Shown here: piece by piece, positions 229-36,251 of the stretch
Position numbering within the stretch: the first letter of the stretch is position 1
Layout of the letters: each line of letters opens with the position of its first letter
From: an uncultured Eubacteriales bacterium
GTDB taxonomy: Bacteria; Bacillota; Clostridia; TANB77; CAG-508
Assembly: GCA_949840345.1 (NCBI GenBank)
Contig: CATKWX010000001.1
Location: 155,538 to 219,537, forward strand
Direction: 5' to 3'
DNA length: 64,000 nucleotides
Notes under the pieces: generated by a model
Databases searched by the model: none
What the model saw: only the letters and a program-made list of their open reading frames with translations
Told to the model about the DNA's origin: nothing
Program-made: the position numbers and the translations under genes

Positions 229-330
229 CAAAAATCTTTGATTTTTGTACTATTGGGCACAGTGGTGTAGCAAGATACGGGTATTCCCATAAACGGTGCC
301 CCTACACTATTCATTATTAATTTTTCACTT
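229..330. repeat. Family A mosaic repeat: SD-adjacent palindrome P (caaaaatctttgatttttg) plus 47-nt GC hairpin H3 (gggcacagtggtg...aaacggtgccc) plus CTACA plus heptamer fragment
   Basis: Modules recur at more than 25 loci in this window. Confidence 0.8.
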
Positions 331-442
331 TAATATAATATATCAATATAATAAATTTTTCAATATTTTTTAATTTAAATTGGAAATTTGTAGGCAGAAC
401 TGCCTTAAGAAATTTATTAGAAATTATTTATAAATTTGTCCT

Positions 443-781
443 CTATTGTTTGCCTACCTCATTAAATGTCAACCCCTCTCTTTTTAAAATTTCTTCAAGA
501 GAAATAGCTCCTTCATTTTCTTCTTTTTTTGTACTTTCATTTTCTTTAAGATAATCTAAATACATTACTTTTTCTGTAATATCCATATTCTCTAGAATTA
601 CTGTTGGCTCTAACTTTAGAAGTTCTGATTCAATTGCTTTTTCCATTAAAATTCTAATAGAGTTTAGGCATTCAATATTTAACCTTGGAGTCATTTTAAT
701 TACATCTTTAATTGCTTGTAATTGTGATTCACTCATATTTATATTCTCCTTTTCTTTTTGTATATTATATCTTTTTGTCAA
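443..781 (-). CDS. hypothetical protein (112 aa; possible start at internal Met16)
   Basis: Six-frame ORF with no recognisable motif. Confidence 0.35.
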   Translation of the reverse strand: MTKRYNIQKEKENINMSESQLQAIKDVIKMTPRLNIECLNSIRILMEKAIESELLKLEPTVILENMDITEKVMYLDYLKENESTKKEENEGAISLEEILKREGLTFNEVGKQ

Positions 782-820
782 ACAAATTGCAATAAAAATT
801 CTAAAAAAAATAGTGTAAGC

Positions 821-863
821 GGAACGGCGAGGGCGCCGTTCCCTACAATGTTTGCAATATGTT
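821..863. repeat. Family A: hairpin H1 (ggaacggcgagggcgccgttcc) plus CTACA plus Q box (atgtttgcaatatgtt)
   Basis: Exact copy of modules seen at 4616, 11424 and 22159. Confidence 0.85.
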
Positions 864-893
864 TTGTGTTAGTCATTATATCTATCAATAATT

Positions 894-2771
894 TTATTTG
901 TATAATTTATTTAATACAATTACAAATAGTGCGTGTGCCCAACCTAAACCTATTACCCAAGCTGGTTTCATTGTTTGGTTGTCTATTTGTTCTGCTATAA
1001 ATCCATGCTCTGTTGCAGAGTTTACTACATAACTAAAGCATTCTTTTGCTTTTTTCTTTTCTCCTGCTTCTATATAATAGTTTGCAAGCCAAAGGTTTGC
1101 TATTGTCCAAGGATTTCCTCCCATATAGTTATCGTTTTCATATCTTAAGTATCCTCCTGTATATGTTCTTAAAGTCATATTTATTCTTTCTACTGTATTT
1201 AATATTTTCTTTTCTTTTGGCTCAAATACTTTAAATGGAGTTACTGTTCCAAGTAAACTTATATCTATTTTTCCATCTTTATTTCTTATTAAAGTTTTCT
1301 TATCATTATCATATAAATTCTTTAATATATATCCTTTTAATTCTCTTAATAATTTTTCTAATTCTATAGTTCTTTTTTCTATCTGCTCTAGCTTTATCCT
1401 GTTTTCTTTGTATTCTGGTTTTACTACTTCATAAATCTTTATAAATGCATCAAATGCTGCAAATATTGTTGCTAATGAATATGTATGTATTCCCTCATTT
1501 TCTTCCCATATATCGTAGCTTAAAAATTCTTCTGCTTTTCCTTCTAGCATATTTGATACATATTTTTCTAAATAGTGTACAGCCTTTTCGCACATTTTTA
1601 AATTATCTTTTAAAAACTTTATTTCTTTTTGTTTTAAGTAATGATTATATACTCCATATACTACAGCGGCTGTCTCGTCTATTTGGTAGCCCCAGCAAGG
1701 TGCTAATGTTCCATCTGTATAGAAACGTTGCTCCCATCTTCCACTTTTACTTTGTGTATTTTTACAGAAGCTTTTGTAGAATTTTTCTGTTTCTTTTTTC
1801 ATATTTAATAAATCCATTGCTTCTGTTATAAATATTGCATCTCTAGGCCAACAATATGAATATCTTCCACAGTTTGTTCTATTTTCATCTACCTCTACTG
1901 CAGCTGATATTCCACCAGTTTGATTATTTGTTAATAGTGCATATAATAAAATTGTTCTTCTATATATTTTTTGTATTCTTATATTTTTCTCTGTTATTGG
2001 TAAGTTTAAGTCTAATCCATCATGCTCTCTTACATATTTCTTCCAATATTTTCTTGTTTGCTCTTCTTCTTTTTCTAAATCTAGTTTCTTTATTCTTGCT
2101 ATATTAGTTGAAATTAAAGATTTATTTTTTGCTTCTTCTATATAAATAAATAAATTAATTTCCTTAGTTTCACCTGGTTTTAATGTTCCTAAATTATAGC
2201 TAATACTTGAATCGCTAGACATCCCAATATAATCTTTTCCACCAATTGAACCTTCTTGTATGTTTGCTTCTGTATTATTTATTTGTGTAGTTGATATTTT
2301 ATTGTTTGAAAAACAAGCAAATGTGTAGTCATGCATATATTGTAATAATACGTCATCCTTTTTATATCCACTTACTTGATTATTATCATCTGTTAATAAT
2401 TTAGAATGAACTAATACATTTAATTCTAAATCTATTGTATTTTCATTTTTAAATTTATATCTTTTAACTAATACATTTTCTTTTATTGGGCAGAAATCCG
2501 TTTGCTCTAATTTTAATCTAAAATATGTATTAAATATTTCTGTTTTTAATATGTTTGTATCCTCTATATAATATTGGTTATATGCATTATTTACATCTTT
2601 ATGTGTATATATAATATTTGAATCATTTACTTTTATTCCTACATTAAAAAAGTCTATGAATTGTCTATAATCTATGTTTGGATAGTATAGCCTTAATAAT
2701 TCTCCTCTTTTTGTATAACTAGCACTTATTGTTCCATTTCCTATTACTGCATCATTAAAATATTTATTCAT
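894..2771 (-). CDS. glycoside hydrolase family 15-like protein (glucoamylase/glucodextranase-related)
   Basis: The ORF contains an RYSYCWPRDA (WxRD) motif and the alpha/alpha-toroid C-terminus typical of bacterial GH15. The true start is MNKYFNDAV at 2771, after an SD GAAGGAG. The ORF-track N-terminus MNSEEYK is read from the heptamer repeat. Confidence 0.5.
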   Translation of the reverse strand: MNKYFNDAVIGNGTISASYTKRGELLRLYYPNIDYRQFIDFFNVGIKVNDSNIIYTHKDVNNAYNQYYIEDTNILKTEIFNTYFRLKLEQTDFCPIKENVLVKRYKFKNENTIDLELNVLVHSKLLTDDNNQVSGYKKDDVLLQYMHDYTFACFSNNKISTTQINNTEANIQEGSIGGKDYIGMSSDSSISYNLGTLKPGETKEINLFIYIEEAKNKSLISTNIARIKKLDLEKEEEQTRKYWKKYVREHDGLDLNLPITEKNIRIQKIYRRTILLYALLTNNQTGGISAAVEVDENRTNCGRYSYCWPRDAIFITEAMDLLNMKKETEKFYKSFCKNTQSKSGRWEQRFYTDGTLAPCWGYQIDETAAVVYGVYNHYLKQKEIKFLKDNLKMCEKAVHYLEKYVSNMLEGKAEEFLSYDIWEENEGIHTYSLATIFAAFDAFIKIYEVVKPEYKENRIKLEQIEKRTIELEKLLRELKGYILKNLYDNDKKTLIRNKDGKIDISLLGTVTPFKVFEPKEKKILNTVERINMTLRTYTGGYLRYENDNYMGGNPWTIANLWLANYYIEAGEKKKAKECFSYVVNSATEHGFIAEQIDNQTMKPAWVIGLGWAHALFVIVLNKLYK

Positions 2772-34703: not shown

Positions 34704-34709
34704 ATTGTA

Positions 34710-34794
34710 AAAAGAAATGTTGACAAAGGGGACGGAGCATTTTGGCAATTTTAAAATTGCCAAAATGCTCCGTCCCCTTTGTCAACATTTCTTT
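34710..34794. terminator. 42-bp perfect palindrome, bidirectional terminator between convergent genes
   Basis: aaagaaatgttgacaaaggggacggagcattttggcaatttt is followed by its exact reverse complement, and is flanked by A and T runs. Confidence 0.6.
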
Positions 34795-34800
34795 TTTTCT

Positions 34801-36063
34801 TTAATCTTTCCTATTCCAGTCTTCTTTGTTTGTTTGTCTTTGTCTTGCTATTGCTAATGCATAATCTGGTACATCATCTGTTATTGTTGAACCTGCAGCC
34901 ACAAATGTATTGTTGCCCAATGTTACTGGTGCTACTAAATTTGTGTTTGAGCCTATAAAAGAATTATCTCCTATTATAGTTTTACTCTTATTAAATCCAT
35001 CATAGTTGCAAGTAATTGTACCACATCCAATATTTGTTTTTGAGCCTATTTCACAATCTCCCATGTATGATAAATGAGGCACTTTTGTTCCTTCTGCAAT
35101 TTTTGCTTTTTTAATTTCTACAAAGCTTCCTATCTTTACTTTATTTGCCAAATCGCATCCTTCTCTTATATAAGCATTTGGTCCTATTTCACAGTCTTCT
35201 CCTATTTTTACTCCTGATTTTATTGTAGTATTTGGATGAATTACTGTATCCGCTCCTATTTCTACATCGTCGTATATGTAGGTTGTATTTATATCTTCTA
35301 TTGTCACACCATTTCTCATATGTTCAGTATTAATTCTTACTCTTAACACTCTTGTTAATAACTCTAGTTGAACTTTATCATTTACACCTAATATTTCTGT
35401 ATTATCTTCTACTATAACTGCACCTGTTTTTAAGCCTTTATCATTCATTATCTTAATAACATCTGTTAAATAGTATTCTCCTTGCGCATTGTCTGATGTA
35501 ATTGAATCTAATGCATCCAATAATTCCTTTATATCAAAGCAATAAATTCCTGCATTTATTTCTTTTATTTCTTTTTGCATTTCTGTTGCATCTTTATCTT
35601 CTATTATTGCTTTTACATTTCCACCTTCGTCACGAATAATTCTTCCATATCCAGATGGATTATCATATATAGCAGTTAGAAGAGTAGCATATTCTTTTCT
35701 TTCTATACTTTTTTCTACTAAAGACTGTATTGTTGTAGGTCTTAATATAGGAACATCTCCACTTAGTATTACAACTTTTCCTTTTTTTCCTTTTAGATAT
35801 TTTTTTGCTTGCATTACTGCATGACCAGTTCCAAGCATTTCTTCTTGTATAGCGTATTTTACAGTATCTCCTAAAACTGCTTGCACTTGTTCTTTTTGAT
35901 ATCCTACAACTGTTATAACATCATTTATACCAGCTTTTCTTGCATTTTCTACAGCTCTTTTTACAAGCTCTTTTCCATAAATTTGATGTACTAATTTTGA
36001 TTTTTTAGATTTCATTCTAGTTCCTTTTCCTGCCGCCATAACTATAGCAATTGTTTCTTCCAT
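34801..36063 (-). CDS. glmU: bifunctional UDP-N-acetylglucosamine diphosphorylase/glucosamine-1-phosphate N-acetyltransferase
   Basis: N-terminal AAGKGTRM nucleotidyltransferase motif and a C-terminal left-handed beta-helix hexapeptide repeat. The start MEETIAIV follows an SD AGGAGG. The ORF-track extension is read from the repeat. Confidence 0.9.
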   Translation of the reverse strand: MEETIAIVMAAGKGTRMKSKKSKLVHQIYGKELVKRAVENARKAGINDVITVVGYQKEQVQAVLGDTVKYAIQEEMLGTGHAVMQAKKYLKGKKGKVVILSGDVPILRPTTIQSLVEKSIERKEYATLLTAIYDNPSGYGRIIRDEGGNVKAIIEDKDATEMQKEIKEINAGIYCFDIKELLDALDSITSDNAQGEYYLTDVIKIMNDKGLKTGAVIVEDNTEILGVNDKVQLELLTRVLRVRINTEHMRNGVTIEDINTTYIYDDVEIGADTVIHPNTTIKSGVKIGEDCEIGPNAYIREGCDLANKVKIGSFVEIKKAKIAEGTKVPHLSYMGDCEIGSKTNIGCGTITCNYDGFNKSKTIIGDNSFIGSNTNLVAPVTLGNNTFVAAGSTITDDVPDYALAIARQRQTNKEDWNRKD

Positions 36064-36078
36064 TTTTACATCCTCCTT

Positions 36079-36251
36079 CAAAATTTGTGAAGCAAATTTT
36101 GTACTCTTCACTATTCATTATTCACTAAGCACCCGCTTCGTAGCACAGGCGATTAAAATCGCCCCTACAGATAATTATTCACTATTAATTATTAACTCTT
36201 CACTCTTGCCGTTAGGCAAGCGATGCCCCTACAGCGTTTGCAATTCATTTC
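36079..36251. repeat. Family A: P' plus heptamers plus W-like plus H7 plus CTACA plus heptamers plus H6' plus CCCCTACA plus Q-like
   Basis: P abuts the glmU SD. Confidence 0.8.

Follow-up and report, generated by a model that had tools for sequence, protein, structure and literature searches.

A palindromic repeat unit set flush against Shine-Dalgarno sequences in an uncultured low-GC gut Clostridia genome may belong to a modular intergenic repeat family

In a 64-kb stretch of the genome of an uncultured Eubacteriales bacterium (assembly GCA_949840345.1, contig CATKWX010000001.1, positions 155,538 to 219,537; the whole stretch is called the window here), nine unrelated genes carry a short palindrome, P, directly upstream of their Shine-Dalgarno (SD) sequence. 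We found that the 3' end of the unit to which P belongs is flush with the first purine of an unchanged native SD, less often abutting the SD-like repeat head ATGTAGGGG, and that the unit is gained, replaced, decaying and changing in heptamer number on the time scale of sister species and strains. The reading that we favour, with a probability of roughly 55%, is that P forms the hairpin at one end of a repeat unit, (TGAATAR)n + RTA + AT-rich palindrome, from a modular, selfish or neutral family of intergenic repeats, and is not a gene-specific regulator. Other modules of this family would be GTAG-headed GC-rich hairpins with TTGCAAAC heads and CTTCGAAGG tails, and the family may have expanded recently in this lineage of uncultured low-GC gut Clostridia.

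The window has a GC content of 29% and the majority of its genes lie on the minus strand. The nine palindromes are perfect or near-perfect and are all located on the minus (gene) strand, 0-3 nt 5' of the SD. A sequence-only reading of this DNA had listed them, and reading of the sequence together with a palindrome scan confirmed the positions; at ftsK the palindrome stands against the SD as had been said, but the perfect palindrome occupies 8803-8821 and not 8804-8822. A stem of 8 bp with a loop of 3 nt is present at radA (229-247; CAAAAATC-AAA-GATTTTTG), at a beta-CASP metallo-beta-lactamase (MBL) gene (4552-4570; CAAAAATC-TTC-GATTTTTA, with a terminal C.A mismatch), at an open reading frame (ORF) of 506 aa termed orf506 (6200-6218; CAAAACTC-TTC-GAGTTTTG), at ftsK (CAAAAATC-TTC-GATTTTTG), at whiA (21087-21105) and at sigF (27396-27414). 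The copies of a GH15 gene (2789-2811; CAAAATTTG-CTTCA-CAAATTTTG) and of glmU (36079-36101) are identical in sequence, with a 9 bp stem and a 5 nt loop, and the copy of ileS (14275-14299; CAAAATTTGC-TCTTC-GCAAATTTTG) has a 10 bp stem and a 5 nt loop. The scan returned exactly these nine and a tenth copy missing from the earlier list (63037-63061; CAAAATTTGCC-AAA-GGCAAATTTTG; 11 bp stem, 3 nt loop), which lies away from an SD; it is followed by AT and a GTAG-headed GC hairpin, and the next SD is found about 80 nt further on. The same arrangement is present in the related loci L017, L089 and L153. The short heptamer array 5' of the tenth P (63062-63077) supplies the stop codon of the upstream ORF 63064-63612.

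The pattern TACAAAA-N7-17-TTTTGA occurs ten times in the window compared to 0.39 ± 0.57 times in dinucleotide shuffles, none of 100 shuffles reaching ten. All ten copies are intact, three of them identical in sequence, and no degenerate copies or relics were found in the window. Pfam confirmed GH15, beta-CASP MBL, FtsK, IleRS, WhiA, a sigma factor and GlmU as genes behind P, and showed that genes for a STAS (SpoIIAA-like) and a HATPase (SpoIIAB-like) protein precede the sigma factor gene. Neither P nor the heptamers nor the GC hairpins matched an Rfam family in searches of the region and the related loci at the gathering score and at E<=1.

Read on the gene strand, the order heptamers, palindrome, SD and AUG that had been proposed was found throughout. 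The general layout is one or more GTAG-headed GC-rich hairpins, C-free heptamers, RTA, P, SD and ATG. The heptamers are of the types TGAATAG, TGAATAA, TTAATAG and TGAAGAG; three to seven of them precede P at each SD-abutting site except radA, where only the remnant aatagta is left, and across arrays their number ranges from 0 to 7. Every P begins with CAAAA and is directly preceded by RTA (GTA or ATA), and the heptamer stretch is nearly C-free and contains stops in all three frames. The arrays are located at 2812-2841 (GH15, including a TA linker), 4571-4593 (MBL), 6219-6255 (orf506, five units), 8822-8851 (ftsK), 14300-14336 (ileS, five units), 21106-21142 (whiA), 27417-27460 (sigF) and 36102-36124 (glmU). 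The sigF array is part of a spoIIAB-sigF spacer (27415-27635) that also holds four GTAG-headed GC hairpins. At ileS the heptamers and P stand alone with no GTAG hairpin beside them, showing that heptamers plus P are a unit in their own right. The heptamers had also been said to create false N-terminal extensions in the ORF calls of four genes: extensions of the MNSEEYK type are real at GH15 and sigF, while the extension at glmU comes from a GTG in the last heptamer and that at ftsK from a TTG at the end of P.

Directly 3' of each P lies the SD purine run, whose GGA/GGAG core begins 0-3 nt on, and the start codon follows 10-21 nt after P. The segments from SD through spacer to ATG are 211-228 at radA (AAGGA at 221-225, ATG at 211-213), 2769-2788 at GH15 (AAGGAG), 4538-4551 at MBL (AGGAGG), 6183-6199 at orf506 (AGAAAGGAAA), 8779-8802 at ftsK (GAAAGGAA), 14257-14274 at ileS (AAGGAGG), 21071-21086 at whiA (AAAGGAG), 27381-27395 at sigF (AGAGGTG) and 36061-36078 at glmU (AAGGAGGATGTAAAAATG). 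The two junctions of the unit are asymmetric: P directly adjoins the SD purine run (0 nt), whereas 6-14 nt are left between the upstream stop codon and the array. Since the upstream junctions are not flush, simple deletion does not account for the flush placement. ATGTAGG, the alternative neighbour of P, has five of seven positions in common with AAGGAGG.

To follow the unit at orthologous sites, loci of relatives (designated by L-numbers) were compared with the window. Labels of the related contigs give uncultured Clostridia or Clostridiaceae, sampled in the gut of sheep, goat, deer, rabbit, mouse and Hadza humans. Contigs of the uncultured metagenome-assembled genome (MAG) GCA_948707265.1, as well as several ENA and Logan gut assemblies, encode a WhiA protein identical to that of the window, and six assemblies of the species share the same P at whiA. 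At eight orthologous sites the unit is present in the window and missing from L128 or L163, a presence/absence polymorphism. In L128 (GlmU 94% identical; other proteins 64-96%; synteny with window positions 18-41 kb) P is lacking at glmU, sigF and whiA. At its glmU gene the sequence from AAGGAGG to ATG is identical to that of the window, and the stop codon upstream is only 18 nt away, versus 175 nt of modules in the window. The SD therefore belongs to the gene and not to the repeat, and an SD carried by the repeat itself was ruled out. L163 (IleS 90% identical) has no modules at ileS, ftsK, orf506, MBL and GH15, and its SDs are kept, for instance AGAAAGGAAA at orf506, which is also the SD of this gene in L162, where P is again absent.

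In closer relatives P is replaced or decaying. In L134/L162, taken as one relative, GlmU and IleS are 96% and 94% identical to the proteins of the window, respectively; L134 carries a different variant at glmU (CAAATCTC-TTC-GAGATTTG) and, at sigF, a relic in decay (aaaaaatcttcggtattt), located behind a long-stem P and a GC hairpin, and L162 carries a copy with a 1-nt bulge at ftsK and no P at ileS, orf506 and MBL. L168 (GlmU 95%) has a collapsed relic (gagagtaCAAAATTTTAT) at sigF and no P at glmU, where P is likewise absent in L130, L132 and L136, and in L089 (SpoIIAB 72%) a single GC hairpin stands alone before sigF. Uncompensated changes thus occur at orthologous sigF (L134, L168) and ftsK (L162), as well as at def, where three of five orthologues in MAGs (L014, L026, L158) have uncompensated changes in the 5' arm. 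In L165, which belongs to the same species (99% nucleotide identity), the P units are as in the window and the heptamer array at sigF differs in number. The density of perfect P copies falls from 10 per 64 kb in the window to 1 per 44 kb in L134 and L162 together and to 0 in L128 and L163; GTAGGG occurs 0.78 times per kb in the window, 0.56 in L134, 0.66 in L162, 0.09 in L128 and 0.13 in L163. P is an addition that the genes can do without and that evolves fast, its 3' end always falling on the first purine of the SD run.

These comparisons bear on the proposal of the sequence-only reading that heptamers and hairpin serve one RNA-binding regulator as a platform, or act as an SD-occluding switch, and so coordinate radA, GH15, MBL, orf506, ftsK, ileS, whiA, sigF and glmU. 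Tandem 7-nt repeats do resemble multi-site RNA-binding platforms, of which HutP and TRAP are examples. However, the coordination of nine genes fails: at eight of them P is missing from syntenic sister species, which have the same SD, spacer and start codon (for radA there is no orthologous locus), an outcome that the sequence-only reading had itself named as refuting, and other MAGs have P at quite different genes. A conserved cis-regulatory hairpin would be kept at the orthologous gene, and P is absent or decayed in L128, L163, L134, L162 and L168. The number of heptamers, furthermore, differs between strains that are 99% identical, and ileS is already under T-box control. We consider a regulon of this kind very improbable. 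Random insertion alone, which had been named as the alternative, does not describe the pattern either, as the junction is always flush with a native SD; this repeated, independent flush placement is not due to chance.

The distribution of the unit was investigated by scanning species-representative genomes with the 19-mer of the heptamer-P junction, AATAGTGAAGAGTACAAAA. The layout heptamers, P, SD and ATG was found in many Clostridia MAGs of 26-32% GC, before groEL, rplJ, def, murG, rho, ybaB and other genes. Among 36 unique copies, about 26 adjoin an SD and about seven adjoin AT plus a GTAG hairpin. Stem variants include CAAAAATC, CAAAACTC, CAAAATGC, CAAAATTC, CAAATCTC and CAAAATTTGC(C), with loops that are mainly TTC; over all copies stems measure 7-11 bp and loops 3-7 nt. 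Scanning viral contigs with the same 19-mer gave only chance matches in coding sequence (NSEEYK), and a scan of JGI metagenomes gave few relevant matches and nothing new in kind.

In Clostridia with 40-55% GC the 19-mer AATAGTGAAGAGTACAAAA is followed by a strong hairpin, CAAAAAGAAAAAGCCGCTTGCGCGACTTTTCTTTTTGG, that lies flush against convergent tRNA genes at their 3' ends. Heptamers plus GTA followed by a terminator-like hairpin at a tRNA 3' end were seen in Clostridia MAGs of 28-55% GC (L013, L021, L022, L032, L043, L048, L051, L075, L079, L098, L018, L100, L030, L087, L076, L064 and L160). The convergent tRNA genes are those for Met, Arg, Cys, Ser, Phe, Tyr and Lys. Upstream of these tRNA-flush modules, which have no Rfam match, there is often a copy of the heptamers that is inverted and pyrimidine-rich. 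Inverted pairs of heptamer arrays are present in the higher-GC genomes and were found only outside the genome of the window. In literature searches we found no prior account of an SD-flush repeat, or of the modules of the window's arrays in Clostridia. The tRNA-flush modules share with the P units the 19-mer, purine-rich heptamers and a hairpin framed by CAAAAA...TTTTTG that is flush against a functional RNA landmark. Their hairpin differs in having a GC core and in apparently being a real bidirectional terminator, and the landmark against which it lies is a convergent tRNA gene (its 3' end) instead of an SD.

This likeness raises the question of whether P acts on the other strand. The unit, as a homologue of the terminator modules that follow tRNA genes in the higher-GC Clostridia, would provide a hairpin and a G-free, C-containing pyrimidine tract that serve as terminator or Rho-loading site against antisense or convergent transcription. 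The position of the 19-mer before a strong bidirectional terminator hairpin flush with convergent tRNA 3' ends fits this idea, and so does the fact that C.A mismatches of the sense strand are G.T/G.U pairs on the antisense strand. However, an intrinsic terminator has a GC-rich stem and a U tract, and the P stems consist nearly entirely of A-T pairs, too weak for intrinsic termination. In a permissive terminator scan of window positions 1-20000, which include six of the ten P copies, the ileS copy alone passed, on the plus strand. There is moreover no evidence for antisense promoters, and the flush SD junction is left unexplained, making an antisense role quite improbable.

Whether the palindrome is maintained as RNA or as DNA was investigated by analysing the covariation of its arms. 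Across 12 distinct 19-nt copies, 89.6% of the stem cells are paired, a share that none of 500 shuffles attains (80.3% in shuffles), and double-sided changes occur at three of the eight stem pairs, in agreement with the earlier claim that palindromicity is kept by compensatory substitutions. The 96 stem cells include ten mismatches and no G.U, that is, no one-sided (wobble) change; over all imperfect copies, seven of 12 mismatches are C.A or A.C, the rest being C.C, T.C and G.G, with no G.T. The sequence-only reading had preferred an RNA stem-loop to a protein operator with fixed spacing. The variable stems and loops do disfavour such an operator, but nothing favours RNA over DNA: the stem changes are compensatory and give no support for the one over the other. 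A hairpin in single-stranded DNA, or template-switch correction combined with copying between copies, would fit at least as well, and in the repeat family that we propose either of these may keep the palindrome perfect at the DNA level, through recognition of the single-stranded hairpin or through correction and copying from sister copies.

A DNA operator of a dimeric transcription factor would account for the perfect palindrome and for its outer CAAA...TTTG, which is invariant. The spacing of the half-sites varies with the stems and loops, though, and the sequence of the inner stem changes while complementarity is retained. P also lies beside the SD, at ileS as far as about 550 nt downstream of the promoter, and within operons; sister species lack it at the same genes. 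In a comparison by eye, none of the operator consensus sequences of CodY, Rex, Spo0A, CcpA and LexA fits P. The probability of an operator is, in our view, close to nil.

P is very probably part of the mRNA and co-transcribed with its flanking genes, as judged from its position. The sole Rfam match in the window at the gathering score is a full T-box leader (14565-14796, minus strand), whose terminator ends near 14545. The ileS leader comprises a promoter, the T-box terminator and then about 280 nt to the ileS ATG, P lying about 250 nt downstream of the terminator; read-through of the T-box into ileS would therefore transcribe P, which is located in the stretch between terminator and ATG. The sigF P is located in the 250-nt spacer between spoIIAB and sigF, within the spoIIAA-spoIIAB-sigF operon, and GH15, MBL, orf506 and ftsK are consecutive, with only module arrays between them. 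Co-transcription is strongly suggested by these three situations, and the hairpin on the mRNA that had been postulated is very probable from the ileS and sigF positions. In a promoter scan, matches were as frequent as in shuffles of this AT-rich DNA, giving no case for a promoter within the unit.

Folding models predict little effect of P on the transcript. P alone folds with -2.0 to -8.9 kcal/mol, typically -3.8, and at six of the nine sites the minimum free energy fold in context does not contain it; at five of these six a GAAGAG/CUCUUC pairing of the last heptamer with the 5' arm and loop of P is preferred. In partition-function folding the mean unpaired probability from SD to start is 0.58 for the wild type, 0.55 with P shuffled, 0.52 with P broken, 0.65 with P deleted and 0.62 with heptamers and P deleted. 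In these thermodynamic models P neither frees nor occludes the SD. An SD-occluding translational element, one of the roles suggested earlier, thus finds no support, the SD lying outside the palindrome and its modelled accessibility being 0.58 with P and 0.65 without. The upstream GAAGAG and the SD can each pair with CUCUUC in the loop region of P, which would allow alternative folds; modelled accessibility is nevertheless insensitive to P. A role of P as insulator of the ribosome-binding site (RBS) was rejected as well, since the five sets of leaders showed no gain in SD accessibility.

A broader version of an RNA function, and the main rival to the reading that we favour, is that heptamers and P are a generic, beneficial cis-acting cassette for intercistronic and 5'-untranslated region (UTR) positions. 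The C-free, AU/GA-rich heptamers would serve as an RNase Y-type entry or ribosome standby site, and the hairpin would form the protected 5' end of a processed mRNA or insulate the RBS from the GC hairpins. 5' hairpins block RNase J, and cleavage by RNase Y can depend on a downstream stem-loop. Such a cassette is consistent with the presumed transcription of P at ileS and sigF, with its position always 0-3 nt before the SD, with the intactness of all copies in the window, with heptamers that are C-free and have stops in three frames, with the recurrence of the layout before the highly expressed groEL, rplJ and def in other MAGs, and with the persistence of the sigF P in the window and L165 although neighbouring modules have changed. 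On the other hand, the hairpin is very weak and often outside the predicted fold, SD accessibility in the models is unaffected, G.U pairs are lacking and decay at orthologous def, sigF and ftsK is uncompensated. Sister species use the same SDs for the same genes without P, and GTAG hairpins alone also adjoin SDs. We regard a beneficial cassette as unlikely.

Comparison with known repeats and hairpins places P in none of the established classes. Repetitive extragenic palindromes (REPs) and the bacterial interspersed mosaic elements (BIMEs) built from them are GTAG-tagged and mobilised by REP-associated tyrosine transposases (RAYTs) (PMC2817692, PMC3733652); in the latter work Firmicutes are unmentioned. 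REP-type elements are imperfect, extragenic palindromes of 20-40 bp in high copy number, and P, with ten copies in 64 kb, all intergenic and 19-25 nt long, is of that kind in size and number. The arrays of the window are like REP/BIME in being short, high-copy extragenic palindromes in co-transcribed, strain-variable mosaic arrays, and the partner modules have the GTAG head followed by a GC-rich hairpin. P itself does not have the GTAG/CGTC head, beginning with CAAAA after GTA or ATA; unlike REPs it is AT-rich, weak and tied to tandem heptamers, and lies 5' of genes flush with the SD and not mainly in 3' regions.

The pneumococcal BOX, RUP and SPRITE repeats were judged parasitic rather than specialised for the host; their insertions are clustered and nested, co-transcribed, also beside T-box leaders, and a source of spurious ORF calls (PMC3049150). 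The arrays of the window resemble them in being modular with a variable number of internal units (0-7 heptamers, differing between 99% identical strains). BOX has inverted boxA/boxC ends, whereas the heptamer-P unit is asymmetric and its precise SD junction is undescribed for BOX; the terminal inverted repeats and target-site duplication of a BOX-like miniature inverted-repeat transposable element (MITE) are not visible at filled versus empty sites. Correia elements of Neisseria and enterobacterial ERIC elements are MITEs that are co-transcribed and can alter mRNA processing or stability via RNase III and RNase E sites (PMC3049150). As co-transcribed intergenic repeats they are like the heptamer-P unit. 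In contrast to the P unit, the terminal inverted repeats of Correia and ERIC elements are long and their target duplications defined, and we know of no SD-flush placement for either.

Stabiliser hairpins and RNase Y determinants in 5' regions of Firmicutes include the ermC and aprE leaders, cggR-gapA and saePQRS. Like P, they are hairpins just 5' of an RBS after a single-stranded stretch rich in A, U and G. They are gene-specific, conserved and reasonably stable, whereas P is weak, repeated and unconserved at orthologues. Taken together, P is outside the expectations for REPs (GTAG head), for MITEs (inverted repeats and target duplications) and for regulatory RNA hairpins (conservation, wobble pairs and stability), and the arrays as a whole resemble BIME/REP mosaics and BOX/RUP/SPRITE repeats.

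In the repeat family that we favour, the flush junction would result from a preference of copying or insertion for the upstream edge of SD-like purine runs and not from selection for an RNA function. The unit would be co-transcribed as 5'-UTR or intercistronic RNA and tolerated, leaving the SD intact and stopping stray translation in three frames; being C-free, it is unable to pair with the purine-rich SD. The effect of the weak AU hairpin on the mRNA, if any, may be generic and small. A more specific possibility, which we put forward only tentatively, is that heptamers plus P are a non-autonomous mobile element homing to the upstream edge of SD-like purine runs, with the ATGTAGGGG heads as secondary targets and a sister unit at tRNA 3' ends in higher-GC Clostridia. 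Homing to the SD would be equivalent to homing to a site 3' of a CCTCC-like sequence on the other strand.

Several observations weigh against a selfish or neutral repeat. Pfam searches of the window, including the genes specific to it, revealed no transposase or other mobilising gene; a RAYT (Y1 HUH transposase) gene was likewise lacking among the scanned ORFs of the window and the called genes of the relatives' loci. Neither target-site duplications nor terminal inverted repeats of the unit were apparent, be it in the window or between filled and empty sites. The native spacers of the relatives are largely missing in the window rather than displaced, and simple insertion can therefore not explain everything. 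The intactness of all ten copies and the identity of three fit recent copying, but are also compatible with selection, perhaps weak, that keeps the hairpin intact in this species. The asymmetry among mismatches rests on few, partly related copies, thermodynamic modelling is blind to roles mediated by proteins or RNases, and all genomes compared are metagenome assemblies.

The companion modules are abundant. GTAG-headed, GC-rich (REP-like) hairpins occupy about 50 sites in the window, nearly all in gene orientation, for example 808-861, 4598-4656, 8858-9033, 22081-22198, 27500-27621, 46809-46973 and 56570-56706. They frequently have an TTGCAAAC(A/G)YT head and an GTRCTYCGAAGGMATAC tail, and several stand directly against SDs, as at the genes starting at 39007, 23231 and 26399. 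A 64-nt GTAG module (22096-22157) is present in the window and not in strain L002. A quasi-palindromic, MITE-like repeat of about 130 nt with the core ...ttatggaaagagttcacgc...ggtgccataaaa... occurs in both orientations at about 14385-14510, between the T-box terminator and the ileS heptamers, and at about 17080-17330, 22230-22380 and 33990-34110. Another interspersed repeat with a length of about 110 nt (...aaaaaatgct..gtacaa.cgtaca.ttccgcttttttga...) is found downstream of genes, at 39080-39190, 57570-57725, 48900-49065 and 29995-30225 of the window and at 9860-9960 of L168.

Some genes of the window showed features of their own. At the start of the MBL gene (4440-4540; ORF 2893-4446) a +1 shift is needed at GAT TGC C GGA ATG (LVDC|GMYQGQ), and the same shift is kept in L162 and L163, which were assembled independently and represent two other species. 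This conservation argues for programmed frameshifting and against an error of assembly. Two paralogous genes of 223 and 200 aa (21320-21991 and 23463-24065), whose flanks are about 81-88% identical, are absent in the syntenic regions of L128, and a gene of 269 aa (19567-20376) is absent both there and in strain L002. Pfam gave no match for the three, which may be cargo of another mobile element. Among the window-specific genes, 28772-29992 is DAP-decarboxylase-like according to Pfam. dapA, encoding dihydrodipicolinate synthase (DHDPS), is split into two ORFs in the window (30226-30654 and 30765-31172), L134 (14774-15660), L165 and L168 (14358-15243), and is intact in L128. WhiA (20432-21073) comprises 213 aa with one LAGLIDADG-like domain and a helix-turn-helix, the same length as in all relatives examined. 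A palindrome of about 90 nt between convergent genes (34708-34797) is probably a bidirectional terminator; its sub-threshold Rfam matches to mir-548 and MIR774 are spurious.

The units produce false N-terminal extensions and spurious ORFs in the annotation of MAGs and inflate intergenic length relative to sister species. They also call for caution, in that recurrent patterns of a motif beside genes are not regulons unless sister genomes have been checked. The main point of interest is the precision of the junction between P and the ribosome-binding site. Small repeats, selfish in the reading favoured here, can fill the intercistronic spacers of essential operons, such as spoIIA, and leaders such as that of ileS up to the RBS without destroying it. 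If the tentative reading of SD homing is true, the repeat family would use the translation-initiation signal as a safe landing site, and true targeting of the SD would constitute a new insertion specificity and possibly a natural tool for placing sequence beside ribosome-binding sites.

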